Virus record (IMG/VR): IMGVR_UViG_3300007346_000024
Direction: 5' to 3' (one strand)
Length of the DNA stretch: 64,000 nt
Source of the DNA: an uncultured virus (IMG/VR IMGVR_UViG_3300007346_000024)
Taxonomy: Duplodnaviria; Heunggongvirae; Uroviricota; Caudoviricetes
The notes under the pieces are model-generated. The model saw nothing but the letters and a program-made list of their open reading frames with translations. It made no database searches and had not been told where the DNA came from. The translations under genes and the position numbers were made by a program. Shown here piece after piece: positions 129-52,301 of the stretch (the stretch's first letter is position 1; each line of letters starts with the position of its first letter).

Positions 129-387
129 CGTATCTAATAATTATTGTATCTCTTTTTTTTTTAGATTCAAAAAGCTCTATAGCTAGACTATCTTTTATAA
201 CTATTACTGAATCAATACTAACAGAAAGCAAAGAATCCTTTTTTCGGATATTCTTAAGCTCTCTTTCTGTAGCGTTCAACTTATTATTCAATCCTTCAAT
301 ATCACCCTCCTCGCTTGGAGCAAGGAAGATGTATATGAATAGTATATTTATAACTATTGAGGCTATTAAAATAAAATTCTTATTCAT
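40..387 (-). CDS. Putative i-spanin/Rz-like protein
   Basis: N-terminal TM helix then coiled coil; overlaps a downstream lipoprotein-like ORF. Confidence 0.5.
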   Translation of the reverse strand: MNKNFILIASIVINILFIYIFLAPSEEGDIEGLNNKLNATERELKNIRKKDSLLSVSIDSVIVIKDSLAIELFESKKKRDTIIIRYDEKIDNIISLNADSSVSYLSSRLSEVSID

Positions 388-7483: not shown

Positions 7484-8145
7484 TAGTAATTAATTTTTAA
7501 GTTTGGATAATGACTATTTGCTGTACTAGTCGATGTTGTAATCATAGGAAAACTACCCGTAGTAATATTGTCGTAATCATCTTGAAATAAAGCTGCTCTG
7601 AAAGACAATCCTCTACTTCCATATTTCCACTTAGGTCTGTTTGAAATATTGTAGCTACCACTTCTATTTTCAAAAGTAATAACTATGTTACTTGTTCCAT
7701 CATAAATAAAGTTGTTACTAAAGTTTACAGTATTCCATGCATTACTTGTAGGAAAATATATACTATCATAACAAGTTTGCCTATCGAAATAAGTAAAAGA
7801 ACTTGATTGACTTATGTCTGTTTCCATTAACGTACTCAAGAAACTCTCTGTAGTGTGAGCAACACTTATTCTAAAACTACTCATAGATGCAGTACCATTA
7901 ACTCCATTCTCTATATCTACTCCTGTAATTATCTTAGCACCGCTATCTGTAGCGTTAATTTCTGAAGCTCTCACAATAACATGGCAAACAGAGTAATTGT
8001 AATACATGTTGTATGGCGTAGTAGCTGTATTTTGATAAGAGGCTGTATCATCAAAAGTAGTTCCTGAAGTAAAAATATCTACAGTTTTATTTTGAATAGG
8101 AGGTACGCCACTCCCAAAACTATATGGATTAATTATAAAACTCAT
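7483..8145 (-). CDS. Fibre-tip/receptor-binding partner protein
   Basis: MSFIINPYSFG N-terminus and beta-rich domain; coupled to the fibre gene. Confidence 0.5.
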   Translation of the reverse strand: MSFIINPYSFGSGVPPIQNKTVDIFTSGTTFDDTASYQNTATTPYNMYYNYSVCHVIVRASEINATDSGAKIITGVDIENGVNGTASMSSFRISVAHTTESFLSTLMETDISQSSSFTYFDRQTCYDSIYFPTSNAWNTVNFSNNFIYDGTSNIVITFENRSGSYNISNRPKWKYGSRGLSFRAALFQDDYDNITTGSFPMITTSTSTANSHYPNLKINY

Positions 8146-10379
8146 TACGCTCTTTTTCCAATTAAATAAACTTTTAACCCTGTTCCTGCTACTGTAGAGC
8201 CTACTTGGTCTATATCAATAGTTATTTCAGCGTCATCAGCTAAAGCACTGTCTGATATTACAGGAGGCGTGACAGCCGTTACGGATGTTTTTTCTCCTGC
8301 GTCAATTGAAATAACTGTACTTAAAACAGATGTTCCGCTTTCATTTATATCGCATGTTAAATTAGCTCCTGTTGGTGCTGTTGTAACACTTGCTCTAACA
8401 TCTTCTAAAGTCATAGCGTAAGGCATTCTGAAAGTAACTTTAGCTGCACCTGTTGTTAAGTCAGTTGTTTCATCTGAAGCTGCTACAACTAACACTTCTG
8501 ATTCTCCATCCCAAGCACCATAACCATTAGCGTCTGATTTTAAAACTTTACCTAAAGCCTCTGTACCGTCTACTAATCTTATCGCATAATTGCTTGTTCC
8601 TCCTGAAGCTCTAAAGTAACCTCCTAAGTTAATACCTGTTGACGTTCCTGAAGCTCTACCCTCTACACCTGTATTTGCTGCTGAAGAACCTCCTGCCGAA
8701 CCTATTACACCTGTATTAAGAGTTCCTGAAGAGCTTAAATTTTGTCCGAAAACCGCTGTCGCATTAGCTCCATTTACATTTGCAAGAATACCTGAACGAG
8801 ACGCGTCACTAATATACATTCTGTAAGCTGTAGTTGGAGCAATACCGATACCAATGCTTCCTGAGTCATCAATCTCTAATAAAGAGGTTGATAAACTATT
8901 CTCTACTAATAAAGCAGTAGTAGCAGAAGTAGACCCTTCGCCTTTAATATACAAAGTTGAAGGTATAGGTAATGTAGTGCTGTTTAAAGACATTCTTTTA
9001 GCTGAAAACATAGCTGTATGCACGTTTTGAGCTAATATTCTCAAAGTATTGTTAGACTTAATATACTCAGCATTACTTGCAGCATATAATCTTAAATTGT
9101 TAGATGGAACACCACCTGCCTGAACTAACAACCCTCTGTTAGTTGTAGAATTAAGCACCTCAACAGCTCCTGCATCTGTAACCTTAAAAACAGCTCTTGT
9201 AGTATTACTTAAAGATAAGTCATAACCGTTTAAAGAATGTGTTCTATTAGCGTCTAATGTTAAATCAGTATTAGCGAAGTTCGGGATATTTCCACTTATA
9301 ATACCATTATCTAGTATTTTAAATAACTCCGTTCCTAAACTATTTTCTACTAATAGCGAAGTGGTTGCAGAAGTTGACCCATTACCTGTTATATGCACCC
9401 TTGTACCTGCGGCAGGAAGATTTGTTACAGCGTTGCTAAATCTAACATCTCGACCAAAAGAAGTTTCACCGTTAAACTGAACCTTCATGGCATCAACTGT
9501 TCCGTTATTTGCCTTTAATGTCCATTGGTAGAAGCTTGCATTCATGTATCCTGCTCCTCCATCCCAAAAAGATAAACTATTATCAATGTTACCTGTTCCG
9601 TTCCATATTCTGAATCTATTAGATACCGAAGTTTTGAATATTAAGTCAGACCCGTTAAAATCTACAGTCCTCCTATTAGAAGTTCCTCCCGTTCCTGTTA
9701 TAACATCATCGGCTGTATAAATAGTGTTTACACTTGATGCAGTTTGCCAAGAAGCATTACCATTTGCGTCTGAAGTTAATACTTTACCCGCTCCTTGATT
9801 ACCATCAACTAACTGTAAAACATAGGAATTACCCGCTCCTGCATTAGCAGCCTCAAAGTAACCTGCAATATTGTCTCCTGAATTGCTTTCATTAGCAACA
9901 ACGCTAATACCGTAACCTAAACCGTCAGTCCAACTACCGTGAAATAAAGCTGCTGCTTTAATCGAAATATTTAAAGGCGACCAACCTGCCGCATTATCTC
10001 TTGCTCTTGCGTAAATTGACTGAACTATAGAAGGAGAAGTTCCTGTTACTGTAGTTGTAAATAATCCATTCCATGAATTAGAACCTGAACTATCGGCAAC
10101 TGAATCAATATTATTAGGAATACCTCCTGTGAAAGTACCTTCTATCTTTATACCGTTGATGTTATTGTTGTCAATCCAAAGCTTAGCACCGCTACCCAAA
10201 GCTCCATCAGATAATGTTAGGGTTGTCCCATCAAATCTGAAATTATCTGTATATATGAAGTCATTTCCCGCAGGATTCATATAAGGGATTTGCCTATTAG
10301 TACCTAAGCTAATGCTTGACCCACCCCCTGAGCCTGCTCCCTTAAATATCCCAAAACCTGAACCTATTCTTGTTCCCAT
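8145..10379 (-). CDS. Long fibre/spike protein with internal repeats
   Basis: G/S/T/N-rich; repeats GSTSATT.LLVENSL (x2) and LVDG...GKVL.SDANG...W (x2); C-terminal SDETTDLTTG...FRMPYA tip domain. Confidence 0.65.
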   Translation of the reverse strand: MGTRIGSGFGIFKGAGSGGGSSISLGTNRQIPYMNPAGNDFIYTDNFRFDGTTLTLSDGALGSGAKLWIDNNNINGIKIEGTFTGGIPNNIDSVADSSGSNSWNGLFTTTVTGTSPSIVQSIYARARDNAAGWSPLNISIKAAALFHGSWTDGLGYGISVVANESNSGDNIAGYFEAANAGAGNSYVLQLVDGNQGAGKVLTSDANGNASWQTASSVNTIYTADDVITGTGGTSNRRTVDFNGSDLIFKTSVSNRFRIWNGTGNIDNSLSFWDGGAGYMNASFYQWTLKANNGTVDAMKVQFNGETSFGRDVRFSNAVTNLPAAGTRVHITGNGSTSATTSLLVENSLGTELFKILDNGIISGNIPNFANTDLTLDANRTHSLNGYDLSLSNTTRAVFKVTDAGAVEVLNSTTNRGLLVQAGGVPSNNLRLYAASNAEYIKSNNTLRILAQNVHTAMFSAKRMSLNSTTLPIPSTLYIKGEGSTSATTALLVENSLSTSLLEIDDSGSIGIGIAPTTAYRMYISDASRSGILANVNGANATAVFGQNLSSSGTLNTGVIGSAGGSSAANTGVEGRASGTSTGINLGGYFRASGGTSNYAIRLVDGTEALGKVLKSDANGYGAWDGESEVLVVAASDETTDLTTGAAKVTFRMPYAMTLEDVRASVTTAPTGANLTCDINESGTSVLSTVISIDAGEKTSVTAVTPPVISDSALADDAEITIDIDQVGSTVAGTGLKVYLIGKRA

Positions 10380-23899: not shown

Positions 23900-24580
23900 T
23901 TATCCTACTAATGGCTTCCTGTTAGGGAATTGGAACTGAGATAAGTTTGGCTTAGAGTAAGCTTTACCTACGCTTCTTCCTGATAAACCTCTAGAAACAT
24001 CTAACTGCTCCATTGGGTATAATCTAACAGTAAGTGTAGCAGATGCTAAAACTGTAGTTACAACTTTAGTAAATGCGTTTACAGGGAATTTGTGACGAAC
24101 GATAGTCACACCTGACTGCTGCTGCATTGGGTCTAACGCAGGAGAAACAGGTAAAGTAACTTGTCTTCCGTTTGGCTCTCTGTAAGTAATTACTAACTGC
24201 TTGAACGGCTGTGAAGTGTTCGCAGACTGTAAGTACATTAAACCTACTTTGAAAGGCTCTGACTTAATAGACTCTAAGAACTCAGTGTAAGTTACGTCTC
24301 CATTATCCATTGTGATAGTGATAGCCGCAGGGTTACCGAAGTTAGTAGCTCCAAATAAGTTAGAGTTAGCTCCTAAAAATACTACATCTGATACATCATC
24401 AGTAGTTGAGTTAGCGATGTTAATGATGAAAGGCAAAGATGCTTTAGCTTCTGCACCTGCTCCTGCACCTGCATAGTCATAATCATCTGCGTAATCATAA
24501 GCATCAACGTTGTCCCAACCATCGTAGTTTGAATACTCCTCGTTTGCGAAGTTCATTGCGTCTGAAAAATAGTTTTCCAT
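23900..24580 (-). CDS. Putative major capsid protein, single jelly-roll type
   Basis: Acidic/aromatic leader then ~150-aa beta-strand-rich domain; own terminator; paralogous to 27031..29316; near packaging ATPase. Confidence 0.6.
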   Translation of the reverse strand: MENYFSDAMNFANEEYSNYDGWDNVDAYDYADDYDYAGAGAGAEAKASLPFIINIANSTTDDVSDVVFLGANSNLFGATNFGNPAAITITMDNGDVTYTEFLESIKSEPFKVGLMYLQSANTSQPFKQLVITYREPNGRQVTLPVSPALDPMQQQSGVTIVRHKFPVNAFTKVVTTVLASATLTVRLYPMEQLDVSRGLSGRSVGKAYSKPNLSQFQFPNRKPLVG

Positions 24581-25001: not shown

Positions 25002-25724
25002 ATGAGTGAAATTAAATTTCCAAAAGTTTTAATAGCCGCACCTCAGCACGACTCTAAGAGTTACTGTTGGGACAAGTGGGTTGAAAGGGTTAATAACCTA
25101 ACCTATCCTAACTATGATGTCTTTATGGCTGATAATAGTGCTACTGATGACTTTGCTGAAGAAATGAAAAAGAGTGGGGTTAAAGTTAAAAGAGTAGGGT
25201 TCCATTTAGAAGGGGTTTTAGAAAGAACTACTCAAGCACACGAAGCATGTAGGTTAGAGGCTATTAATGGAGATTATGACTTTCTTCTACATTTAGAAAC
25301 TGATATTATACCTCCTCTTGATGTAATCGAAAGACTTCTTATTAATAGAAAGAAAGTTGTTTCAGGTACTTATGATATTTTTCATGGGAAAAGCAGAAAG
25401 TCTATGATTCAGCTTAACGAACCTTTGGATAGAACTTATGGAGCTTATCGTTGTGTTCAATTCGCTGAAGAGCAAGAGCCTTTAATATTTGACGGTACTA
25501 CTAAGCAAGTTTACCATGCGGGAATTGGATGCGTTCTTATCAGTAAGTATGTATTCGAGAAAGTACCTTTCAGATTTGTTGATAACGTACCTTTTCATGC
25601 TGACACATGGTTTGCTAACGATTGTTTTTCTTTAGACATCCCAATCTACTTAGATACCACAGTTAATTGCAAGCATTATAATACTACTTGGTTAGATGTT
25701 GCTGATGAAATATTAAACAATTAA
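25002..25724 (+). CDS. Glycosyltransferase family 2 (GT-A)
   Basis: PKVLIAAP...DNS...YDFLLHLETDII...GIGCVLI...D..F...H. Confidence 0.75.
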   Translation: MSEIKFPKVLIAAPQHDSKSYCWDKWVERVNNLTYPNYDVFMADNSATDDFAEEMKKSGVKVKRVGFHLEGVLERTTQAHEACRLEAINGDYDFLLHLETDIIPPLDVIERLLINRKKVVSGTYDIFHGKSRKSMIQLNEPLDRTYGAYRCVQFAEEQEPLIFDGTTKQVYHAGIGCVLISKYVFEKVPFRFVDNVPFHADTWFANDCFSLDIPIYLDTTVNCKHYNTTWLDVADEILNN

Positions 25725-25735
25725 AAAACAATATT

Positions 25736-25743
25736 TACTTTTG
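25736..25743 (+). promoter_or_regulatory. -7 box TACTTTTG
   Basis: TAnnTTTG upstream of ATG 25755. Confidence 0.5.
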
Positions 25744-25754
25744 AAAATACATTT

Positions 25755-26609
25755 ATGGAGAATACAGAAAAAAAGAAATTAGAAGGTCTTCTTTACAGAA
25801 AAGGTGTAACGGAGTCATTAATGACGGTTTGGCAAAAAGGTATTAAAACCTATAACGAACTTAGGGAGCAATGTATGATTGTTGCTAGCGATGAGACTAG
25901 GACTGATTTAGAAAGGTCTCAGGCTAAAGTTAGAATTCATGAGATTGACGCACCGTTAAAACATTACATTACTTCTTTTAAGCTTTCTAAAAGAGAGTAT
26001 GAGAATTTTATTATTCCTGAGATTGAAAAATTAGTTTCTGAAGAAGATAAGGAAATTATTGGGTTTGTAGACTTAGAAGCTCAAGCAAGAGAGTTAGCTA
26101 ATATTGAAGTTTTCGGTCACGGAAAACAACCTGAAAACGTTGAACTTAATGATGTAGCAAAAAGTCTTTCTCAACACATTGAATTACTTAAGAACATTAT
26201 CGAACAGATTAATGATAGAATTAACACTTCTAGCGATGAGTACGAAAAGGCTGTTCTTAAAATGGATTTATTCAAGCACAACCTTCATTTTATTTCAAAT
26301 AAGAAAAGGTTAGCTGAAAGAATAGACTACTATAATAATCAGTTCCTTCCTAAGTACAATAAAGACATGGAAGAGGCTGATAGGTTATTAGATAAGTATC
26401 TAGATAGAGCTAAAGAACTAATTGCTCTTGGAGTAGATATTAAACTTCAATTCTTAATAGATGAGTACGAAAAGAATAAAGCCGATAAAGAAAAAGTTTG
26501 GTTGTTCTACACGGCTCTTAAGTCAAGAATTAATAAAATTTCTAAGGAAATGAGAAAAAATAAGTCTACATTTAAAGGGAAAATGCATCTTGCAGAAGAA
26601 ATTTCTTAA
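25755..26609 (+). CDS. Helical/coiled-coil hypothetical protein
   Basis: 284-aa charged helical ORF. Confidence 0.65.
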   Translation: MENTEKKKLEGLLYRKGVTESLMTVWQKGIKTYNELREQCMIVASDETRTDLERSQAKVRIHEIDAPLKHYITSFKLSKREYENFIIPEIEKLVSEEDKEIIGFVDLEAQARELANIEVFGHGKQPENVELNDVAKSLSQHIELLKNIIEQINDRINTSSDEYEKAVLKMDLFKHNLHFISNKKRLAERIDYYNNQFLPKYNKDMEEADRLLDKYLDRAKELIALGVDIKLQFLIDEYEKNKADKEKVWLFYTALKSRINKISKEMRKNKSTFKGKMHLAEEIS

Positions 26610-26676
26610 TGAGACAATATATTTCACCACTTTCTTTTTTAAATGATGGGGCTTGCTCTAAAGGTGAATCGACTCT

Positions 26677-26715
26677 AAAAAAAAAGCTCACAGGTTTTTA
26701 CTTGTGGGCTTTTTT
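26677..26715 (+). terminator. Intrinsic (likely bidirectional) terminator
   Basis: A9-GCTCACAGG-loop-CTTGTGGGC-T6. Confidence 0.7.
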
Positions 26716-26791
26716 ATTACTACAACTATCTATACAAATAAATACCTAGCACAAACTTTGAATGAATTTATAAACTACCAAATTATTTAAA

Positions 26792-27034
26792 GTGAGAAAC
26801 AGAGCCGTGTCACTACGTAAACTAAAACTAGAACTAGAAGGAAAGCAAGTAACTAGAAAAGCATTAGAGAAATTACAATATCATAAAGATGGTAAGGTTA
26901 ATTTTGAGAAAGTAATAGAACTAAGAGATTTAGTTACTGACATCATGCTTTTACAAAAGAAAATTGACTTACTAGAAGATACAGGTCTGTATTTAGGGTG
27001 CAACTCTCAATTAGGTTATTCCTCATCTGTTTAA
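26792..27034 (+). CDS. Hypothetical protein
   Basis: 80-aa ORF with GTG start, helical. Confidence 0.4.
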   Translation: MRNRAVSLRKLKLELEGKQVTRKALEKLQYHKDGKVNFEKVIELRDLVTDIMLLQKKIDLLEDTGLYLGCNSQLGYSSSV

Positions 27035-29316
27035 TTGCCTCTTGAAATATAATTTCTTACAATTGACTTTATATTTCTTTTAGACCTTTTAGATTGGATA
27101 AACTCCTCTTCTGATTTTCTGATAGAATCTATAACTTCTACCTGAGACTCTTTTAGTTTTTCTAAATCAGACTCAATAGAATCTTTGTCTATAAAAACTG
27201 AATCAAGTTTGATTTTAAAGTCTTTAATATCTTGCTCTAAACCTCTTCTTTTAGCTATTGCTATAAGCTTTTCTTTTATGTAATCTTTTTGCTCTTCAGT
27301 AATATCTTCTACCAACTGTTTTAAAGATACATTCAAAGGAATATCGTGAGTTATATAAGCATCTATAGTTTCGATTATCGCGTTTAAATTACCCTTTGAG
27401 TATTCTATAGTAATAACAGCCCCTTGATTAGCTTTTACCTTATAAAGAAGTTTGCTTATTGTTTTAGGTAAGAAGTTAATCGGGTAGTCCTGAATTTTAA
27501 ACTGTCTCTGCATTGGAGATATAACAGGATTGTCTATCAATTTACTTGTATGACCACTAGCTCCTCTATTCACTTTAGTTATAGGCATGTTTGCCTGCTG
27601 TAAAGACTGAGTTCCTATTGATATTGTTTCAAACAAATAAGGAGTAGCATTATTTCTTAGACCTTGAACTAACTCTTCATAAGTCAAACCTCCTCTTACA
27701 TCAACTACTGATATACCCGTCCCTTTTATTACGGTGTTACATACAAAATCATAAGTTACCGCATCTGTATTATTTTCTACGTCAACAAATTTATTTTTCG
27801 TGTAGTACTCTTCTTCTTTAGCTCCTTTATTTTCAGAAGAAGAAGATTGGGATACTGCTGTGGCTATTTGGCTACCTGTAAGATTTGATGAGAACCTAAC
27901 AAAAGAATTATCCCCACTACCTTGCAAGTATTTTATATAGTAACCATTCCCTGAGCCAAAACTCTCTATCTGAACTGCTTGACCATCAAAATCTGTTACT
28001 AAAACTTCATTACTAGCCGAAGTATCAGACCATAAAATATAATCTCCATACACTTCTGCATACGAAAGAGACCTAATTGACCTACCTGAATAAAGGCTAG
28101 AGCTTATGAGTTGTTTAGTTTGAACGTCATAAACATCAACATAAGAACCTGCTCCAACTATACCCGCAACAAAAATCCTGCCTTTTATATATTGAACAAC
28201 AGGTTTATATGTAGACGCGGGCATTCCGTTTATAGTGTCATACAATATTTCATCAGTAGCTTGAGATATATCTCCATTTTCAAACTTAAATACACCCGCT
28301 TCAGCTCCCGTTGCAATTTGACTAGAATTACCAATCCAAGCATTACCTGATTCATCTTGAGAGAAACTCTCTCTTGTTTGAGAAAAAGATATGTTTGTCG
28401 TTCCCGCTACATTTAAAGGTTGTGTCTGTATAATTAGATTTCGGTCTTTATCGTAAGAGACTACTTCGGATGAAATACTTACACCTGTATTCATACCAAT
28501 AGTAGTCTGAGCTGCGTCCCAATAAAAAACAGCTCCTCTACACTGTGTTCCCGTAGGGTTTAAAATAGTATTAGGGGTTGCAAAAGCGTCTAACTCTATC
28601 CATGCAAATGAACCATTAGGCAAATCAACATCAGCTATCAAAGCGTTCTGATTATAGCTATCATAAGCTACAGATGAAGGGTTAGATAAACCCCATGCTG
28701 CATTAGTATCAATAGTTGAAAATGGAGATGTAGGATTCGAGTATCTGTAAAAAGAAAAATACCCTGAATTACTAAGGGTAAAGTAACCATTTTCAGTTGC
28801 CTGACCTGAGCCAAAGTAATTAGTTGAATTCAGAGCTTCCATTAGCCTTACACCGTTAAGCGAACCTAGAGCAAATGGTACTGTAATAGCTGAAGGTGTT
28901 CCAAAATCTACCCCTACAGGAGCTTGCCAAGCACTAAAGTAAACGAATGTATCAAAAGGTCTTTTTACAATCTTAAAAAAAGCACCCTCTACGCTATACC
29001 CAAAATTCTCTTTTGAAGCAGAGTTAAGATTGAGTATAAAGTCTGATATTGTCGTTGATGTAAATGTAGTTGTTTGAGCAACATCATCTTGGTCGAACCA
29101 ATTTATAGTCCATGACTTAGCTGAACCAAAATCAGTTAAAGGAATTAGAACTTCACAAAACTGAGTAGTGAATAAATCCCCATAGCCAATGCCTTGACTA
29201 GGATTAATACCTGAAGGAAGAGCAAACAAATCTATTACTTGGTCTTCATCAGTTCTATTGATTAAAGCAATCTTAATCTCATCCTTAACTAAACTATATA
29301 TTCCTTTGTCGCTCAT
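27031..29316 (-). CDS. Capsid-protein paralogue with large insertion (putative vertex/spike protein)
   Basis: N-terminal ~30 aa and the segment at 27400-27720 align with the putative MCP; ~500-aa beta-rich insert between. Confidence 0.6.
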   Translation of the reverse strand: MSDKGIYSLVKDEIKIALINRTDEDQVIDLFALPSGINPSQGIGYGDLFTTQFCEVLIPLTDFGSAKSWTINWFDQDDVAQTTTFTSTTISDFILNLNSASKENFGYSVEGAFFKIVKRPFDTFVYFSAWQAPVGVDFGTPSAITVPFALGSLNGVRLMEALNSTNYFGSGQATENGYFTLSNSGYFSFYRYSNPTSPFSTIDTNAAWGLSNPSSVAYDSYNQNALIADVDLPNGSFAWIELDAFATPNTILNPTGTQCRGAVFYWDAAQTTIGMNTGVSISSEVVSYDKDRNLIIQTQPLNVAGTTNISFSQTRESFSQDESGNAWIGNSSQIATGAEAGVFKFENGDISQATDEILYDTINGMPASTYKPVVQYIKGRIFVAGIVGAGSYVDVYDVQTKQLISSSLYSGRSIRSLSYAEVYGDYILWSDTSASNEVLVTDFDGQAVQIESFGSGNGYYIKYLQGSGDNSFVRFSSNLTGSQIATAVSQSSSSENKGAKEEEYYTKNKFVDVENNTDAVTYDFVCNTVIKGTGISVVDVRGGLTYEELVQGLRNNATPYLFETISIGTQSLQQANMPITKVNRGASGHTSKLIDNPVISPMQRQFKIQDYPINFLPKTISKLLYKVKANQGAVITIEYSKGNLNAIIETIDAYITHDIPLNVSLKQLVEDITEEQKDYIKEKLIAIAKRRGLEQDIKDFKIKLDSVFIDKDSIESDLEKLKESQVEVIDSIRKSEEEFIQSKRSKRNIKSIVRNYISRGN

Positions 29317-29378: not shown

Positions 29379-30245
29379 TTAGTTCCCGTAGTACTTTTCA
29401 GTGTACTCCTTAATTAAAGTTTTAGCCAAAGCTTTGTGGTCTTTATGAATAGGTTCTCCTGTAAACAGGTCTTTCTTATTCATCATTGGCTTTACAACTT
29501 TATTATAGTTATCCTCAAGGTACTTATAGATAGCGTGTTGGAATTGTTTCTTAGAGAACTTTCCTTGAATCTTACCTGTGTCTTTGTTTAAGTAAGCGTA
29601 AAACCTTTTGTTACCTTCATGATACTCAAGGTCAACCATTTTCTCAAGAATCTTTAAATGCTCTAAAGTTCCTGCGAATTTGTTTTTATGCCTCTCTACA
29701 GAATCATCACACTTATGATAACGAATCCAATTTGCATTACCCCAAATCTTAGGGTGTGCGGCTTTACCAATTGTTTGGAAATGAGTTATAACATCTACAG
29801 AAGCATGTCTCTGAGTAACGATAGAACCAATTAAATCATTAGGCATTGAATCCGAAACGAATCTGTTAATATCTTCAATTAACAATAATCCATTATGATA
29901 GTGTTCCAATATGTAGCTCAATGCTTCAGAAAGTTCTTTTAAATTCATCTTTCCTCCACCTTCCTTAAGAATGCTAACTCGTCTAGCTTCAACTAAACTA
30001 GAGTCAGCAAACTTTTTAACATCTTCTAACCTTAAACCTTTTACGTTTATAAAATTAGGATTTTGGTCTTCTTGGACGTTACCAAACTCGTTATTAACAT
30101 CTAGTATTAATACCTTTCTAGGTTTAGCTCCTGTAATAGGATTTCCTTTCAAATAAGGTTGTAGCATCTCTAGAGTAGCGTATGTCTTACCTACTCCTTT
30201 TCTACCTACCGCTATTCCTAATAAAGGCTCTCTAAGATTTCCCAT
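29379..30245 (-). CDS. FtsK/HerA-superfamily (A32/P9-like) genome packaging ATPase
   Basis: Walker A GRKGVGKT near N-terminus, Walker B LLLIED, QRH arginine finger, HFQ motif; 288 aa with no nuclease domain. Confidence 0.75.
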   Translation of the reverse strand: MGNLREPLLGIAVGRKGVGKTYATLEMLQPYLKGNPITGAKPRKVLILDVNNEFGNVQEDQNPNFINVKGLRLEDVKKFADSSLVEARRVSILKEGGGKMNLKELSEALSYILEHYHNGLLLIEDINRFVSDSMPNDLIGSIVTQRHASVDVITHFQTIGKAAHPKIWGNANWIRYHKCDDSVERHKNKFAGTLEHLKILEKMVDLEYHEGNKRFYAYLNKDTGKIQGKFSKKQFQHAIYKYLEDNYNKVVKPMMNKKDLFTGEPIHKDHKALAKTLIKEYTEKYYGN

Positions 30246-43626: not shown

Positions 43627-45516
43627 TTACAAATTTTTAAGCATCTCTAAAGTTTCAAGCTCTTCTTTTAATTGATTATAAGATTCAGGGTCATCCTCTT
43701 CAGAGAATATCTCTAACATCTCTTTAATAGCCTCGTACTCATCAATAATTTGCTGCATATCAGCATCCACTTCTTCCTTATCGCTCTCTACATCATCGTC
43801 TAAATCTAAAGAATCTAAGTCTATTTCATCAACCTCCTCTTCCACTTCTTCGATTGTTGGCTCAGGCTTAGCTTCAGGCATAGCTGATTTATCACTAAGA
43901 CCAATAATAGAAAGCCCTGTTATCTCTGTAACATCTCTTAAGAAATCAAACGTTTCTGAATCAGCACTTCTTAGCTTGCTATAAACTGTATCTAGCTCAT
44001 ATACTAATTCTACTTTATCAGGTATAGAAAGTTTCTCTCCATCAGTCTTTATCAATCCTATAACATTCCCTGACTGAACAATTTGCAAGAATTCATCAGA
44101 ATATAAAAACTCTATATTCTTTCCATAGTACTTCTTAAAATAACCAATGCTTAAAGCGGTAACTGAAACATATTTACCATTTTCAAGATAGAAATAAGTC
44201 CTAGACTTTGAGAATATTGAAGGTGTACCGAAGTCGTTGTATGACATCAAAGGGTATGCCTTTTTTTGATTTTTAAAAGAAGATTTAGAAACTACTCCTG
44301 ACTCTCTATCAAATTTACTTACATCAATCGTATTAGATTTTAAATGTGTTCCTACTTCGTAAAACGAAAAATCTTTTAATTGATTTGGAGAATAATAAAC
44401 AGTTGAGTTAACTTGAATAAAAGAACCTCCTTTTTCGTACATATACTGAACAGGTATGTAACAATAATCAATATAGTTGACACCGTATTGATAGTGAGGG
44501 CTTAATTCAGAAGAAACACTACTTAAATTTTCGTCTTTCTCAAAACTTTTAAGGTTTTTGAATATTTTAACAGCGTTGTTTTCATTGTCTGAAAAAGTTC
44601 TTCCTGTAATAGCTTTATCAAACTTACTATTCACTAGTTCGTCATAATATTCTGTATCAAAAATATCTTTCTTCAATGATGCATCTGTAAGACCAAGCAT
44701 ATCAGAATAGAAAGAGTTGTCAAATAATGGAATTAACTCCTCTAAAAGCTCTTCATTAGCTCCAACAATATAAGCCTTGCTTCTTTTCTTTACAGCTTCT
44801 TCTAATAAAGATGTTAATGATAGTACGGTGTCCGTAGCATTAACATCACTAGGGTATGAGAAAATTATTTTTGCAAAGAAATTAGGAAGCAGAATCATGA
44901 AGTAGTCACTACCATTAGCCCCTTCTTGATGATAAATCTTATTATCACTTTTAGAAACACTAAGTATAACAGCTAAATTAGCTATAGCTCCATACATAGA
45001 ACCTCCTGAAATAACCCATTCGTAACCAAACAAATCCGAATCAATAACTTCTTCAGCACCTTTTTCCTCTTTTTCCTCTTCTTCCTCTTCTCCCTCTTCA
45101 GACTCATCTAAGTCTAATTCATCTAAGTCTAATTCATCAACATCAACAGACTCTTTAGAAACTCCTTCTTTTTCATCGTCTTCTAATTCAATATCGGAAT
45201 CGTCTAAGTCTAAGTCGTCTAACGTCAACCCTTCTAGGTCAAAGTCTATATCAGAAATATCTATGTCTATTGAAATATCGTCTTTAGACTTAACTCCGTA
45301 CCCCATATCTTTAGCTTTTTCTATGAAAGATTCAGATTTTATAAAGTTGTTAAAATCCCTTAAAGCTATTTCGTATTGTTTAACTGTTAACTCATCTAAC
45401 AGACCTGATTCAACAAGCTCACCAAGAGCCTTCAATTCAACGAAGGTCTTGTAAGCTACTTTATCAATCTTTTCAAGCTCTACGCTACTAATTCCTAATG
45501 CTTCTAAAGCTTTCAT
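43627..45516 (-). CDS. Large acidic protein with (D/E)LDLD repeats and C-terminal helical hairpin
   Basis: 629 aa; coupled to helicase gene. Confidence 0.65.
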   Translation of the reverse strand: MKALEALGISSVELEKIDKVAYKTFVELKALGELVESGLLDELTVKQYEIALRDFNNFIKSESFIEKAKDMGYGVKSKDDISIDIDISDIDFDLEGLTLDDLDLDDSDIELEDDEKEGVSKESVDVDELDLDELDLDESEEGEEEEEEKEEKGAEEVIDSDLFGYEWVISGGSMYGAIANLAVILSVSKSDNKIYHQEGANGSDYFMILLPNFFAKIIFSYPSDVNATDTVLSLTSLLEEAVKKRSKAYIVGANEELLEELIPLFDNSFYSDMLGLTDASLKKDIFDTEYYDELVNSKFDKAITGRTFSDNENNAVKIFKNLKSFEKDENLSSVSSELSPHYQYGVNYIDYCYIPVQYMYEKGGSFIQVNSTVYYSPNQLKDFSFYEVGTHLKSNTIDVSKFDRESGVVSKSSFKNQKKAYPLMSYNDFGTPSIFSKSRTYFYLENGKYVSVTALSIGYFKKYYGKNIEFLYSDEFLQIVQSGNVIGLIKTDGEKLSIPDKVELVYELDTVYSKLRSADSETFDFLRDVTEITGLSIIGLSDKSAMPEAKPEPTIEEVEEEVDEIDLDSLDLDDDVESDKEEVDADMQQIIDEYEAIKEMLEIFSEEDDPESYNQLKEELETLEMLKNL

Positions 45517-48500
45517 TATTTTCTAAGTTTTATTAATTTATTAGACTTCTCAAACGACTTAACAACATCGTCAACATCTAAGTTATCAACTTCTTTTCTT
45601 TTACTAAGGATTTCAAGCCAATTTTTCTTGATTTCTTCCTTAAATAACTCATCATTGCTCAACCTTATTTTGTCATCAGCTATTGAATCTTCAAAAGATT
45701 TGATAATATCAGGTATATCATTAAATTTTTTTCCTTCGTTAACCACTAACTCTTCATAACCTTTAAGTATTGCTGAGTTTTCAGAAGGTTTGTTAGAGCC
45801 TTGAGTAAATCTATATATAGAAACTCTTTCAGACTTTCTAACCATAGTCATATCGTCTAGACCTAATATTAAAACAGTTGTTCTACCCATAAACTTAAAT
45901 AACGAGTCTTCATTACCTGTTAGTGAAGATGGTTTTTTGTAAACCTTGATTTTATCATCATCTTCATACATATTACTGTCATCTGTATTAACAGTAGCCT
46001 TAACATAAGGGGAATCATGCCAAATCTTAAGAACCTTAAAAGATTTTTTAGACTTTTTATCTATCCCTTTTATCTCAGCAGCTTGTTCTTCTATTTCCAT
46101 TCTGAAAAGACCTCCTTCAACCTTATAAGCAGATGAAAGTTCTTTTAAAATTTCAGTAAGAATAGGCTCTATAATAGAATAAGGAGTGTTTTCGTTAATA
46201 TCTGACTCTAAAGAAGGTATTGGATTTGAAAAATCTAACTCATCAAATACTGCATCAATCTCGCCTTGAGTAGGGTTAAATTTAGCTTTAAGCTCTTCTA
46301 CATCACTTCTGAACTCTTGCTCATACAACGTCCAACTTGGTTTTTTAGAGTCCTTTTTAGCTTTATACTTTTCACCTTCAGCATCAGAAAGACCTTCAAA
46401 CTGAACTCTAAGTTCATTTTTGAACTTGTTAACGGCTTTTTTCATTTCAGGTTTTCTAGACTTAAGAATCTCTTTTTCAATATCATTCTTTTTCTCATCA
46501 ACGTTTAACTTACTTAGCTCCTTTGCTAAATAATTTATAGTAGGTAAATAAGATGATATTTGAGTTTTTAAACTTTCGTATTTCTCGCTAATATTTCTAA
46601 GCTCAGAAATCTTTTTGTCTAATCTGTTAACATTGTTAGAAAGCTCTGATTTTCTCTGATAGAACTCAATCTTAGTCAATAAATCAGGGTCAGTAATAAG
46701 ACTTAATAGACGCTCTCTTGCGTTCATAGTAAACTGAGTAGTGTTCATATCATAAACACCCGCTTCTAACATTCTTTTAATGTTATTGATTTTTCTATTA
46801 AGCTTATCATAAACGAATGCGTCAATAGAGTTAAGTGCTAAAACATATACAATTCTAACGTTGTCATAAGGGTTTTTCTGTCTCCAAATTCTTCCTTCTA
46901 ACTGCATTGAAACTGTTGGTGAGAACTCCGCTTGAGCAATGTACATTGTATGAGAGTTACCTTGTAAATCAATACCTTCCTTGATTGCCTTAGAACCTAA
47001 AAGAATTTTAACTTTTCCGTTGTTAAATTGGTTTTTAATTAAAACTTTACCTCTTCTAGTTATTTCACCTTTTTTATTCTTAGAAGAATCATCTTTAACA
47101 CCTTTACCCGCAATAATAGCAACCTCAGTAAACTCTCCTGACTTTTCAAATTTTTCATCAGAAATGCCATCTACATATCTTGTGATGTATTCTGCTAATA
47201 ATTCAAATGCATTATAAGTTGTCCCTTTGTAAGTAAACTTAATTTTATTAAAGTACACTACCTGACCACCAATTTTTTCAATATCACCTTTCTTCAATTG
47301 CTCTTTTTGATAGTTTATTGTAGACTGAATAGCTTTAACAATAAATAAAAGCTTTGGTGAATTCTCTACAAAAATCTTAGCAGGGTCAGGAGATAAATCA
47401 GGAAGACCTTTGTAAACTAAGTCTCCATCCTTTCCAACCTTAACAAAGTAAGGGCTTATTACTAATTGCTCCTGAACCGACTGACAAGTGATTGCTTTAG
47501 CTTGAATAACTTTGTCTTTTGAAACGGCTGATAAATCAACGTCAGATTCGCTTGTAGAAAACTCTTCTTCAACATCTTCTTTTGATTCTCCTAAAACGCT
47601 TATTCTAGTCTTTTTAATCAGGTTTATTAACTTCTTGTTACCTGAATACATTACTAATAATGCGGCTTCTAATTCCGCTACTAAATCCTGTATAGCTTCA
47701 AAATCCTTGACTTTTTTGAAATCATTTATCTCTGCTCTTTTCTCTTTTATATAGTCTTCAACTTCTGAGTCAATAGATATTTCTGATTCTGATTTAATAG
47801 ATTCAGCAGGGAACATTTCTGATAACAACCTAGTTTCATTATCATCTCTAAGATAGTCCAAGATAATCTCTTGCATTTCCTTTTGTATCTTAGAAAGACC
47901 TACTCGGCTTGACACTCCTTCTAGCTCACTGAAATACTTTCCTGAAACCGTTACCTGAGTATCACCTTGATTGTCAATTTTTTCTTGAGGTAATACAGCC
48001 TTAACAGGTCTGCTTTTCTCAATAGCGTCATCAGTGATTTTAACATTTGAAACATTTGTAATCAAGTTACTTAAAGCCTTAGAGTTGTAGTACCCTTCGA
48101 TAGTAGGGAATAAACCTATATCTCCATTATGCTTAACTCCGTACTGATACGATTCTTTAACATAGTTATTAAAGAAGTCAAAAGAATTGTTAATCCCACT
48201 AGAAGTAAGCATCTTCTTATTGGAAAGACCTAATACGGATATAACCTGTAAAGGATGGTCTGTAAAAGGTGTAGCTGAAAGCATTAAAACGTTTCTAGAA
48301 TCTTTGTTTTTGTCTTGTATAAAAAAGCTTAGTGCAGCTAAGTTTAACTTGTTCTTATTAGCTGAAACCCAAGAACTATCATATTTAATAACTGCTTTAT
48401 CTTTAGCTCCCTTAGCGTTTTGAGTATCCTCCTGAACAGGGATATAAAGCTTATAACCATATCCTGAATAAAGGTATTGGTCAATGTTATTTATCTTTTC

Positions 48501-51500
48501 TTTTTCTTTACCGCTCTCTCTTCCCGCTTTATAAGATTTAGCAGAAACCTTACCTATAATGTTGTTAAAATTATGGATTTCATCAACCACTAATATGTCA
48601 ATTTCTAACTTATCTAAAGATACAGGGTGCTTTTGAAGTATATTATAAGCCTGACCGTATCCTGATTTAGATACTTTCCTCCATTCTGATTTCTTGTTAT
48701 ACTCAATCTCTTCATTAGGCTTAACCTCTCCTAATCCTAGTTTATAATGAAGGGCTTCTTGAACAGATTTAATACTAGGTCTAAGTCTTTCTACAGCTTT
48801 GTGAGTAGCTACAAATATTACGTTATCCTCCATGACTTCACTCTTATAAGAGCCAATTTCGTCTATAAGCCTAATATTAAAGGTGATAACTATCTCTTTT
48901 AGCTCTTCCTGAAGTTGGTTTGATGCTTTTTCTGCAAAAACCTCTCTATCGTCTTCATATTTTTGCTTTTCAGAATCAGTTATACTAGCGTTAATCTTAT
49001 TAGAGTAATCCTCGTAATTAGGCATTGTTTGTTCATAGATAGACATATACGAGTCTTTCATTAACTCAAACATATTATCGCTTAAGAAAGTGTATTTTTC
49101 ATAATCAGGTATTAAAGCCTTAATCTCTGATTTTAAAATCTTAACAAACTCTTCGTAAGACGACTTACTTGAGTAATTGTTTTCAAAAGCAAACATAATC
49201 CTGCTCTTAGGGAGAGCTTTATTGATTATTTTATCAACTGAAGATATTACTTCTTTAAATTTTGAAAGAAGATTTTCTTCACTATCTGTAAAAGGATTTT
49301 TAAGATTTCTAAGAGCTTTTTCTCTTGCATTTCCTAGTGGGAAAACTTTTGCATTAGGGAATAAACCATGAGTATCTGAATCACCTGTAATTTCTGTGAA
49401 AAACTTATCATAAACAGAAGTTGGAACTAAGAATAAAGCTCTTCTACCTTCTCCTGTATTGAACATCTGATTGGTGTAAGTGATAGATGTAGTTGTCTTA
49501 CCAAAACCTACCTCATGAAGAAGTAACCCACTATTATTATTAGCCGTTACATGTCTAACACCTTCCAACTGAGCTTCTCTAAGACCGAATTCAAAAGCGT
49601 TATCTCTTTCTCCAAAAAGAACATTATGTGTAACGAACACGGGCTGCTTAAGCAAGTCAGGCTTAGAGTAGTTATTATAATAAGTATTCCAAAGTTTGTC
49701 TATTGTCTCCTGAGAATCTTCCGTTAGAGCTTCTTTTAAGAATTTATTAAAAAGCCTTCTACCTTCGTTAGCACAATCCCATCTTCTCTCTAGAAAACTT
49801 AACTCTAATTGAGAATATATGTTTTCACTTTCTTTATCTGTGACAACATCAGGCGACTTTAAAAGACCTTGTTCATAAAACATATCTCTAGTCCAAGCCC
49901 TAGACCTAGTTAAAGTGTTTTTAGTGTACTTGTCATTATTCCTTTTAACATCCGATAAATCAATACCTTTTGAGTTACCATCTTTATCTTGCCAATAAGG
50001 AGCAATCCAATTATAGATATAATATCCTTTATCTACAGGCATTACATAAGCTTCCTTGATTTCATCTACACTAAAGTTCCCTAGAATTTGAGATGATGGC
50101 AACGATGTCAACCACCCCATAAATAAGGACTTAATACCCGTAACCCTACTATTTGAAGAGTAACCTGTAACTGTTTCAATTCTTATTCTAGGTGCGGCTC
50201 TACCTGTAGAGGATGCTGTATCTACGCTTGCATTATCTTTTAAAGTGTAAGACGCTTTGTAAAATATAGGGCAGTGAATATCTATGTTTAATCTGTTCGC
50301 CTCATCTTCCGCTTGATTACCCGTTGGCACAGGATTGATTGTTGGAACGAACCTATTCTCTATAGCTTCATTGATAATCTCTAAATGATTTCCTTCTATT
50401 TCAGAACCTTTTTCTTCTCCGTAGTATTTTTTAAGGTACTCTAGAAAAGAGTCAGACTCTAACTCATCTTTCTTTTCGTATATGTTTTTAGAAATAAAAT
50501 CATTTTTATCGCTATACTTTATACGTGCTATAAAATCTTTCTCACTTACGAAAATATTATTAACGAATAAAAACCCTTCCTCTATAAGCTTTTCAGAAAT
50601 AACATCTTGAAACAACCAATAATCTAGACCTAGTATTTTTAATGACAAATATCTATACCCTGTCTTATTTCCTTTAGACAAGAAGTAAGCTAACAGTTCG
50701 TCTACACTAATGTTTTGATTATAAGTCCAATAAGACTCTTCAATTTTATAAACATAATCAATCTTTTTCCAAGACTTTTTAGGCTTAGCCTTTCTAACTT
50801 CTTTGCCGTCTTCTTTTGATAAATATGTATAACTATCAATATAACTTGAAACAACATCATCAACGTAAGAAAGTCTGTCCTCTAAACTAGACGTACTAGC
50901 TATTACCTTTTGGTCGTTATATATTGAAACTAAATTAGGGTATTCCGAAATAAACTCCTTATTCAACATTAAAGGTATGTTTGTAGCAGGGTTTATTAGA
51001 GATATTTGCTCCCTTAAAGAGTATTCGCTAAACAGGAACTCTACGTAATCAACGTAAAAAGTATTTGTAGTTAAACTAACGTCTTGACCTTCTATTATTG
51101 AGTAGTTAGGGCTTTTTACAGTAATCTTCTTTCTTTCTTGAAATATGTTGTCACTTTGTACAAGCTCTTCTCTAACAACCTCTGTGTCTTTTGCTAGAAT
51201 TACTAATTTATTATTCTCTTCATCAAAATAAAATCTAGCCTCAGTCTCTCCATTTATAATCAACAAGTATAAAGACTGAAACAAATCAATAGAATCAGCA
51301 TAAAAGGATTTGTTCGACTCTATATCGAATACCATTTTATAAGTAATACCTCTATCAATAACCTTGCTTAAATCACTTGACTGTATAGTTAAATTTATAG
51401 CATTATTTACCTTATTAAATAACTGAATAATATCTATTGAACCTGTAAATACAGAATCATCTTTTCTTAATTCAGATATATAGCTACGCATCTCTTTAGC

Positions 51501-52301
51501 ATTCAAACCTATTTCTGAAGAAGTTCTTCCTGTTTTAGAAGGCTCTCCATTTGAGCTATAGTAAAACTCATCAGTTGTATAGTTAACTGTGTCTGAATTT
51601 ATATCTTCAGTTATTTTATTAGGCGAAACATTAGTGTAGCTATTCTTTGTTTTTTGAAATACAGAACTAGATGGAGAATGGAAAAAGTAACTTAGGTAAT
51701 CTCCTTTATTTCCAAAAGAATCCCAAGCCTTGCTCTTTGTTAAAATACTATGATTAGCTATCTGAAAAAGATAACTAAGTGTAAACTGATTAGATATATT
51801 AACATTATAATCCAAACTAGAACTTCCTTTTACAGGTGTTACTATTGAGTAAACAGGAAGGTTTTCAATACTAAAAGACGGAGATGACTTCCTGATAAAT
51901 TTACTCTTGCTAATAGCTAATGTATTAGCAAAATAAGCCAACATTTCCTTATAATCTTCTACCGATAAAGTAGAGTTAGGAAAGTCGTTTTGAATAAAAA
52001 TACCAATACTATACTGATAGCTATATGTACTGAAAATAAAATCAAGAGACTTCTTAAGCTCATGATTATCAACTGTCTTATCCGAGTTTAAGCCTTTTAA
52101 TTTGGAAGGGTCTATTAATGTTTCTTTGCTATCATACGTTCCCTCAAACTTAGCTTGAACAAGCTCTTTGTATTGCTTGTACTCTATACCTCTTTTCTGA
52201 CAGTCTTCCTTTATAGCTTTAACGAGTTTTGCTTGCTCAGCAACTCTTGTAATCTCCTTAAGAGTATATTTTAACATATTCTTACAGTTAAATGTTATCA
52301 T
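45516..52301 (-). CDS. Giant SF2/SNF2-type helicase (DarB-like polyvalent protein)
   Basis: HEVGFGKT, LVVDEIHNF, LSATP, EGIDLQ, QLEGRIWRQKN; 2261 aa. Confidence 0.8.
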   Translation of the reverse strand: MITFNCKNMLKYTLKEITRVAEQAKLVKAIKEDCQKRGIEYKQYKELVQAKFEGTYDSKETLIDPSKLKGLNSDKTVDNHELKKSLDFIFSTYSYQYSIGIFIQNDFPNSTLSVEDYKEMLAYFANTLAISKSKFIRKSSPSFSIENLPVYSIVTPVKGSSSLDYNVNISNQFTLSYLFQIANHSILTKSKAWDSFGNKGDYLSYFFHSPSSSVFQKTKNSYTNVSPNKITEDINSDTVNYTTDEFYYSSNGEPSKTGRTSSEIGLNAKEMRSYISELRKDDSVFTGSIDIIQLFNKVNNAINLTIQSSDLSKVIDRGITYKMVFDIESNKSFYADSIDLFQSLYLLIINGETEARFYFDEENNKLVILAKDTEVVREELVQSDNIFQERKKITVKSPNYSIIEGQDVSLTTNTFYVDYVEFLFSEYSLREQISLINPATNIPLMLNKEFISEYPNLVSIYNDQKVIASTSSLEDRLSYVDDVVSSYIDSYTYLSKEDGKEVRKAKPKKSWKKIDYVYKIEESYWTYNQNISVDELLAYFLSKGNKTGYRYLSLKILGLDYWLFQDVISEKLIEEGFLFVNNIFVSEKDFIARIKYSDKNDFISKNIYEKKDELESDSFLEYLKKYYGEEKGSEIEGNHLEIINEAIENRFVPTINPVPTGNQAEDEANRLNIDIHCPIFYKASYTLKDNASVDTASSTGRAAPRIRIETVTGYSSNSRVTGIKSLFMGWLTSLPSSQILGNFSVDEIKEAYVMPVDKGYYIYNWIAPYWQDKDGNSKGIDLSDVKRNNDKYTKNTLTRSRAWTRDMFYEQGLLKSPDVVTDKESENIYSQLELSFLERRWDCANEGRRLFNKFLKEALTEDSQETIDKLWNTYYNNYSKPDLLKQPVFVTHNVLFGERDNAFEFGLREAQLEGVRHVTANNNSGLLLHEVGFGKTTTSITYTNQMFNTGEGRRALFLVPTSVYDKFFTEITGDSDTHGLFPNAKVFPLGNAREKALRNLKNPFTDSEENLLSKFKEVISSVDKIINKALPKSRIMFAFENNYSSKSSYEEFVKILKSEIKALIPDYEKYTFLSDNMFELMKDSYMSIYEQTMPNYEDYSNKINASITDSEKQKYEDDREVFAEKASNQLQEELKEIVITFNIRLIDEIGSYKSEVMEDNVIFVATHKAVERLRPSIKSVQEALHYKLGLGEVKPNEEIEYNKKSEWRKVSKSGYGQAYNILQKHPVSLDKLEIDILVVDEIHNFNNIIGKVSAKSYKAGRESGKEKEKINNIDQYLYSGYGYKLYIPVQEDTQNAKGAKDKAVIKYDSSWVSANKNKLNLAALSFFIQDKNKDSRNVLMLSATPFTDHPLQVISVLGLSNKKMLTSSGINNSFDFFNNYVKESYQYGVKHNGDIGLFPTIEGYYNSKALSNLITNVSNVKITDDAIEKSRPVKAVLPQEKIDNQGDTQVTVSGKYFSELEGVSSRVGLSKIQKEMQEIILDYLRDDNETRLLSEMFPAESIKSESEISIDSEVEDYIKEKRAEINDFKKVKDFEAIQDLVAELEAALLVMYSGNKKLINLIKKTRISVLGESKEDVEEEFSTSESDVDLSAVSKDKVIQAKAITCQSVQEQLVISPYFVKVGKDGDLVYKGLPDLSPDPAKIFVENSPKLLFIVKAIQSTINYQKEQLKKGDIEKIGGQVVYFNKIKFTYKGTTYNAFELLAEYITRYVDGISDEKFEKSGEFTEVAIIAGKGVKDDSSKNKKGEITRRGKVLIKNQFNNGKVKILLGSKAIKEGIDLQGNSHTMYIAQAEFSPTVSMQLEGRIWRQKNPYDNVRIVYVLALNSIDAFVYDKLNRKINNIKRMLEAGVYDMNTTQFTMNARERLLSLITDPDLLTKIEFYQRKSELSNNVNRLDKKISELRNISEKYESLKTQISSYLPTINYLAKELSKLNVDEKKNDIEKEILKSRKPEMKKAVNKFKNELRVQFEGLSDAEGEKYKAKKDSKKPSWTLYEQEFRSDVEELKAKFNPTQGEIDAVFDELDFSNPIPSLESDINENTPYSIIEPILTEILKELSSAYKVEGGLFRMEIEEQAAEIKGIDKKSKKSFKVLKIWHDSPYVKATVNTDDSNMYEDDDKIKVYKKPSSLTGNEDSLFKFMGRTTVLILGLDDMTMVRKSERVSIYRFTQGSNKPSENSAILKGYEELVVNEGKKFNDIPDIIKSFEDSIADDKIRLSNDELFKEEIKKNWLEILSKRKEVDNLDVDDVVKSFEKSNKLIKLRK

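Follow-up and report, generated by a model that had tools for sequence, protein, structure and literature searches.

A capsid-protein paralogue with a nested, exchangeable predicted propeller head in an uncultured virus, a candidate vertex capsomer

Why would a virus keep a second copy of its coat protein, broken open by about 500 residues? The question is raised by a 761-aa protein (P0001) encoded in the window analyzed here, which is made up of the first 64,000 bases of a virus record of 76,676 bp (linear, 77% complete). The window also encodes a P-loop ATPase, a conserved 226-aa protein (P0002) and numerous small proteins with a C-terminal membrane segment. The ATPase has a Walker A motif visible in its sequence and weak Pfam matches, below the cut-offs, to AAA_22 and HerA DUF87; it is likely the packaging ATPase. 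No head, portal, terminase or tail family was found among the 30 ORFs (part of the genome) scanned against PHROGs. With regard to the features of tailless Varidnaviria-like viruses, a predicted jelly roll is present, the ATPase family stays below the Pfam cut-offs, and no HK97-module family occurs in the 30 ORFs. The record probably represents an uncultured, tailless bacterial virus. Neither the 226-aa protein nor the ATPase had a match in 50,697 GenBank phage records, and the virus group is not described in the excerpts of PMC8812541, PMC7600307, PMC10848233 and PMC5894146.

Relatives of this virus form a widespread family with genomes of 72-102 kb and a single-jelly-roll coat candidate; among the sister records, G006 (72.5 kb) falls in the class with inverted terminal repeats. 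The genome carries DUF4494 and DUF3127 genes, which we take to indicate a Bacteroidota host. The sole match to the coat candidate in 185,579 genomes, a 12.5-kb contig (L074) in a Saccharibacteria MAG, was set aside as host evidence, since it may be a virus fragment binned into that MAG. Elsewhere in the window, two long ORFs at 8145-10379 and 387-2366 (minus strand) look fibre- or beta-helix-like by inspection and have no Pfam match, and the minus strand at 45516-52301 and 58431-60257 encodes a 2,261-aa SNF2-type helicase protein and an ART-PolyVal protein. SNF2-type helicase and ART-PolyVal domains are typical of polyvalent proteins. The genome also carries an acyl-carrier-like gene (L075, 5952-6230, minus strand).

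P0002 has 116 relatives with identities of 29-100%. Its AF2 model is a nine-stranded sandwich over about residues 50-193 with disordered arms. Foldseek with this model gave viral jelly rolls as the best matches (E 3e-4, low TM), and the VIA rows, at Z of 6.3 or less, include capsid chains of PR772, phiCjT23, FLiP and PBCV-1. Searches of solved-structure sequences with the family profile gave no match at E up to 1, Atlas matches were all below 0.8, and no longer relatives were found among 7,995 candidates. Based on the jelly-roll model, the high conservation and the gene context, P0002 is likely the major capsid protein (MCP), of the single-jelly-roll type, an assignment that leans on structural Z-scores below 8.

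P0001 is 761 aa long in all five members of its cluster, on contigs of up to 93,865 bp. A preliminary description had proposed that it is a paralogue of the MCP, and three comparisons bear this out. By BLASTP, the core was 24% identical to the 226-aa protein over 100 aa (E 8e-6). Profile-profile comparison aligned residues 534-638 with MCP 86-188 (probability 97.7, E 2.2e-12), and an HMM of the paralogue core in turn recovered the MCP at E 1.5e-11. The segment matched earlier to the MCP (27400-27720) corresponds to residues 533-639. Chance or artefact is ruled out for the core match by the reciprocal result and by the constant length in the cluster. The proposal that the joined N- and C-terminal segments align with the MCP stood for the C-terminal segment; for the N-terminal one (residues 13-31 versus MCP 50-69), the match was significant between family profiles and not between single sequences. 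With single sequences, the match shared second rank, 300 of 300 shuffles reached its score, and local hhalign did not find it. When the family profiles were slid along each other (leaving out the misaligned P0129), residue 13 was the best offset, with a score of 14.2 against shuffled maxima of 4.0 +/- 2.3, which none of 300 shuffles reached.

Pfam and PHROGs gave no informative family match for P0001, and solved-structure sequences searched with the paralogue profile gave only two unrelated matches (E 0.7-0.9). The MCP and P0001 are the only jelly-roll matches in the 76.7-kb record (77% complete). In an unrooted tree of 51 cores, the MCPs (support 93/85), the paralogues (100/98) and the reversed halves described below (97/98) were separate; the paralogue branches were far longer than the MCP branches, and the head types were scattered over the paralogue side. 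Judged by these sequence comparisons, P0001 is a divergent, fast-evolving duplicate of the likely coat protein.

The AF2 model of P0001 was built from a 44-row alignment (mean pLDDT 73, pTM 0.56). As the preliminary description had it, the jelly roll is split by an insert of about 500 aa: 501 residues (32-532) stand in place of the 16-aa loop formed by MCP 70-85. Table 1 lists the parts of the protein. The first two strands, at residues 13-20 and 26-29, have a pLDDT of 90-94, and the core has a pLDDT of 76-94 over residues 535-641. Homology to the MCP and the same strand-helix order in both models indicate that the predicted base is a single jelly roll. The stalk (about 130 aa, residues 32-127 plus 498-532; pLDDT 86-98 over 50-126 and 500-530) holds the propeller within the insert, and in the model the insert is nested, jelly roll to stalk to propeller. 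The N-terminal stalk half occurs alone in relatives of 270-510 aa. No informative family match to the stalk was found in Pfam or PHROGs. Atlas scores of the stalk against viral clusters, among which is the crAss auxiliary capsid protein, were 0.89-0.91; few features are shared, and this is a lead only.

Table 1. Locations of P0001 and its parts, of neighboring genes in the window, and of two-gene forms in relatives
Feature	Location	Strand	Basis or remark
Capsid-protein paralogue P0001, 761 aa, whole gene	27031..29316	-	ORF
Residues 13-31, first two predicted jelly-roll strands (B, C by count), matching MCP 50-69	29224..29280	-	Profile slide; AF2
Residues 32-127, N-terminal stalk half (beta-beta-beta-alpha-beta-beta)	28936..29223	-	AF2, pLDDT 91-97 over 51-120
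Residues 130-497, predicted beta-propeller, exchangeable head	27826..28929	-	AF2, VIA, Foldseek, mosaic pattern
Residues 498-532, returning stalk half	27721..27825	-	AF2 strands 500-530, pLDDT 86-98 over 501-530
Residues 533-642, core of the jelly roll with an extra strand, a helix and strands D-I, matching MCP 86-193	27391..27720	-	Homology and AF2
Residues 643-761, charged helical tail	27034..27390	-	AF2 helices, pLDDT 54-76; variable among relatives
P-loop ATPase	29379..30245	-	Directly upstream of paralogue; Walker A visible in sequence
226-aa single-jelly-roll protein P0002 (likely MCP)	23900..24580	-	Jelly roll at 24002-24433
In-order fission near stalk end	L042 389-1386; L068 6730-7751; L064 4789-5762		Short A/T-rich spacer and new start codon
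Reversed two-gene paralogue, sister clade	L140 4001-5271; L143 4001-6150; L149 4001-5680; L142 4001-6618		

The propeller that had been proposed within the insert is supported by the AF2 model, Foldseek and VIA. By VIA, the predicted domain matched the LRRK2 WD40 domain with a Z of 20.8 (rmsd 3.3, 300 residues aligned) and YncE with a Z of 19.7 (rmsd 3.5, 295 of 321 residues aligned). The model of residues 130-497 is that of a WD40/YncE-type propeller, with four-stranded blades in a closed ring, at a pLDDT of only 40-87, and is probably seven-bladed. The P0001 sequence gave no Pfam propeller match. With the full model, the propeller took up the rows of both Foldseek and VIA, which do not cover the jelly-roll part. 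In the tail, hydropathy revealed no transmembrane segment.

Where the insert leaves the jelly roll bears on which way the stalk points. Since the MCP model has strand D at residues 110-119 and an E-F hairpin at 129-145, the strand count places the insert in the C-D connection; the insert precedes strand D, being in C-D by count or else in B-C, and is not in the D-E position of the pentons compared below. In the MCP family, covariation over 197 rows (Neff 61) gave B-I, D-I, E-H and BC-loop/HI-loop contacts and paired the extra strand with B, and its couplings place the re-entry point (56-88 and 58-88) next to the BC/HI loop end (59-179 and 61-179), near the BC loop. Covariation in the paralogue family (40 rows, Neff 40) gave B-I contacts across the insert and paired the extra strand best with C. 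The loop-direction signals of the two families (Neff 61 and 40) disagree. The strand pattern and the weak B-I coupling suggest that the jelly roll closes across the insert. In vertical jelly rolls, insertions in BC, DE, FG and HI are exterior and those in CD, EF and GH are interior (PMC9617893, excerpt).

The gene setting was compared among the loci gathered by MCP searches (74, namely 73 loci and the genome). The paralogue is next after the ATPase in 27 of the 27 ATPase-bearing loci, one of which is cut by a contig end and several of which are near-duplicates. This placement, and the single pair of halves found in 8 of 10 sister records (see below), are those of a morphogenesis-module gene. 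The distance between paralogue and MCP is 2.5 kb in the window and 13-38 kb in the sister clade. An opposite-strand island lies between the two genes in the window (25002-27034, plus strand), encoding a 240-aa glycosyltransferase-like protein, a 284-aa helical protein and an 80-aa protein, and its position is kept in nearly all relatives viewed.

The insert itself, as had been anticipated, varies among relatives: it is exchanged, absent, or made of stalk only, propeller only or both, and ranges from 95 to 513 aa. Stalk-only inserts have about 95-138 aa. Inserts of about 353 aa hold a YncE-like propeller without the stalk, with weak Pfam support for P0159 and P0164, and those of about 400 aa in L049, L052, L056 and L060 look repeat-like by eye and have no Pfam match. 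Stalk plus propeller inserts have 474-513 aa. P0144 has no insert; a role as the ancestral form is not supported, as it nests among the split forms and lies on a 997-bp contig. The existence of stalk-only and insert-less forms suggests that the head is dispensable in some relatives.

The 20 heads fell into five BLAST groups. Compared with 10 long relatives, the core of P0001 was 38-90% identical and the head 12-49%, a gradient that, at the level of sequence, is typical of exposed host-contact modules. The clearest exchange was seen in P0168, which is 87% (B-C), 90% (core) and 48% (head) identical to P0001, while its head is 93% identical to that of P0169 (100% over 226-405) and its core only 46%. 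This mosaic indicates that an entire propeller was transferred recently and that the borders of the exchange are in the stalk. Chimeric assembly could produce a mosaic as well; against it, the transitions at the borders are gradual, and another cluster member of 764 aa is found on four contigs.

In other relatives the paralogue is divided between two genes. The natural split point is near residue 520, so that the downstream products begin in the returning stalk half. In L042 and L068, the junction that is intact in the close relative L045 gives way to a stop codon, 11 A/T-rich spacer bases and a fresh ATG start, which rules out sequencing errors for these two; L064 is split at a like point. 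On the core tree, in-order splitting arose two or more times. Neither the two-gene forms nor the nesting of the insert and the swapping of whole propellers had been noticed in the preliminary description.

The sister clade, whose ATPase is 42-49% identical, has the halves in reversed order: a gene for strands D-I (146-180 aa) comes first, and a gene for B-C and the stalk follows downstream. The sister search returned 27 loci, 18 with the D-I gene and 9 with MCPs. The B-C and stalk partner was found one or two genes downstream of the stand-alone D-I gene in all 18 loci, and in 14 of them the two halves are separated by a membrane-anchored LRAT/PPPDE-like gene. The D-I half is homologous to P0001 at E 3.2e-9, and the head-bearing half to residues 10-108 at E 1.9e-5. 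The partner's C-terminal head is interchangeable: it may be an NHL/Vgb-type propeller, a set of PKD plus DUF285 repeats or an unnamed domain, or it may be missing altogether. An initial view of 6 kb on either side of the ATPase had suggested that the sister clade lacks the paralogue; this was wrong, as the halves are found 13-38 kb away from the MCP. When sister records were searched whole, 8 of 10 had one of each half and 2 had neither, the latter being linear records of 73-77 kb that are possibly incomplete.

These features were compared with known systems as presented in excerpts of the cited papers. The mavirus and Sputnik pentons have a variable insertion domain between D and E, a 139-aa beta-sandwich in mavirus (PMC6048507), and the adenovirus penton has an exposed insertion domain (PMC5850374). 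P0001 is like these in that a single jelly roll is broken by a sequence-variable insert with a proposed role in host recognition. However, virophages and adenoviruses have a double-jelly-roll MCP, and the mavirus insert is in D-E, whereas the insert of P0001 precedes D, is nested, includes a whole predicted propeller and is swapped; its gene is also split or reordered in relatives, unlike those of the virophage and adenovirus pentons in these excerpts (PMC6048507, PMC5850374). The PBCV-1 penton variant P1v1, which has a pair of insertion domains and a bridging helix at its C-terminus, and the PBCV-1 MCP variants are likewise paralogous capsid proteins whose conserved base carries large insertions that vary, but PBCV-1 is a giant algal virus with DE-loop insertions, and the excerpt describes no propeller, exchange or gene split (PMC9617893).

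Among prokaryotic viruses, SH1 VP4 has a DE-loop barrel of about 75 aa (PMC6441041), and SH1 VP4 and P23-77 VP17 with the penton VP9 resemble the present system in having vertical single jelly rolls and an inserted barrel in one MCP (PMC6441041, PMC7600307). Sphaerolipoviruses, however, have two MCPs as heterodimers and separate spikes (same excerpts), and their genomes are near 30 kb, compared with 72-102 kb here. P0001 does not carry the DE-loop barrel turret of Helvetiavirae: its insert precedes D and spans 95-513 aa among relatives. As to kinship with the MCPs SH1 VP4 and P23-77 VP17, no solved-structure sequence matched our MCP profile at E up to 1, and VIA Z-scores were below 6.4. The PRD1 vertex also combines a jelly-roll penton with a beta-propeller receptor-binding head on a tailless phage, using three separate proteins, P31, P5 and the receptor-binding P2 (PMC5850374, excerpt), whereas base, stalk and predicted propeller are one chain in P0001, and its two-gene relatives would share one jelly roll between two chains. 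By analogy, P0001 likely resembles vertex proteins in its proposed working. Since its insert is not in the DE loop and the homopentamer is presumed, we did not class it as a known penton type. The literature searched, which includes few subscription journals, held no description of a propeller inside a jelly-roll capsomer or of a two-gene jelly roll. Relative to known insertion-bearing pentons, the apparently new elements are the nested stalk with a whole predicted propeller, the head swapping and the gene fission and reordering.

The homology to the coat candidate, the nested model, the conserved single gene by the ATPase, the variable and exchanged heads, the mosaic and the two-gene forms are directly supported. 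The explanation that we favor, and hold to be somewhat better than an even bet, is that P0001 is a vertex capsomer displaying an exchangeable host-binding head; its pentameric state, outward orientation and binding are presumed. The vertex is the likeliest place because few copies would leave room for heads of 350-600 aa and would relax the constraint on the core. Copies of P0001 would build the five-fold vertices, with residues 13-31 and 533-642 closing into one jelly roll that docks among the MCP capsomers and with the propeller held outward on the conserved stalk, which would raise it clear of the shell. The head would bind the host surface, and recombination in the conserved stalk and jelly-roll flanks would swap whole heads and thus change the host range. 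The charged tail (643-761) may tie the capsomer to its neighbors or to an inner layer. In the split forms, the chain with B-C, stalk and head would plug into the D-I chain and complete one fold.

Propellers serve many functions, and against a receptor role, the fibre-like ORFs at 8145-10379 and 387-2366 could be the real receptor binders. Against the vertex, the insert precedes D, while the precedents compared use the DE loop, and CD insertions are classed as interior in the excerpt of PMC9617893.

The detectable paralogy with the MCP would also suit a turret-bearing second capsid protein mixed with the MCP in hexameric capsomers, like SH1 VP4 or PBCV-1 MCPv1. A single-jelly-roll MCP needs partners for hexamers, SH1 VP4 has its inserted barrel of about 75 aa and PBCV-1 its MCP variants with large exterior insertions (PMC6441041, PMC9617893, excerpts), and the stalk-only forms, adding about 95-138 aa, are of turret-like size. 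We consider this arrangement unlikely, since the core evolves much faster than the MCP, unlike a lattice partner with a copy number in the hundreds, hexamers would be expected to become crowded by heads of 350-600 aa, and the gene is a neighbor of the ATPase, at a distance from the MCP of 2.5 kb here and of 13-38 kb in the sister clade.

A spike whose jelly-roll foot plugs into a vertex made of another protein, as proposed for PRD1 P5 and P31, seems less probable still. The P5 N-terminal domain is common to the penton P31 (PMC5850374, excerpt), the split forms act like a socket chain and a head-bearing chain, and some relatives have further plain jelly-roll paralogues. However, the 76.7-kb record of the window (77% complete) offers only the MCP and P0001 as jelly-roll matches, and the head is inserted in the fold and not appended to it. 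Least probable is an inward-facing or non-virion protein, with an insert that exits from a base loop and acts in assembly, in contact with the membrane or in taking over the host. In its favor, insertions at CD are interior in vertical jelly rolls (PMC9617893, excerpt), the loop-direction covariation of the two families disagrees, and in 14 of 18 sister loci the halves are separated by a membrane-anchored LRAT/PPPDE-like gene. Against it, the cargoes (YncE-like and NHL propellers, PKD plus DUF285 repeats) are large, differ among relatives and were exchanged recently, as one would expect for surface adhesins, and the MCP couplings place the re-entry point next to the BC/HI loop end.

A further step from the vertex capsomer can be proposed tentatively, and we hold it with distinctly less confidence: a plug-and-socket vertex, in which a jelly roll opened at one loop takes the stalk and any of several adhesin heads, swapped whole by recombination. 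In many lineages the vertex would come from two genes: the head chain would lend its strands B and C to finish the socket chain's fold, which would allow host specificity to change through replacement of one small gene. The small natural split pairs have about 115 and 150 aa, so the idea of a shared jelly roll is directly testable. If true, a jelly roll split over two chains would be an unusual capsid building block. The vertex capsomer would provide a candidate host-range determinant for this widespread virus family, and a possible route from a coat-protein copy to a display platform through loop insertion, nesting, swapping and then fission.

Some loci have extra plain MCP-like genes without the N-terminal arm, some adjoining glycosyltransferase-like genes. 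They were seen in L004 (814-1434, minus strand), L026 (7345-7851, minus strand), L087 (6860-7441), L098 (5336-5989), L133 (1363-2556), L137 (1618-2142) and L139 (1513-1977). The ORF in L133 has two MCP-like domains in 397 aa, and L090 has a tandem pair of full MCP genes.

The 761-aa protein of the window stops short of a Y-x-Y-x-D-G-like motif that is C-terminal in 7 of the 10 long paralogues (P0119, P0121-P0125 and P0170). The motif also occurs in 64 of 116 MCP N-terminal arms, including that of the window (24431-24580), against a background of 6 in 963 ORF ends for a pattern that was written after seeing the sequences.
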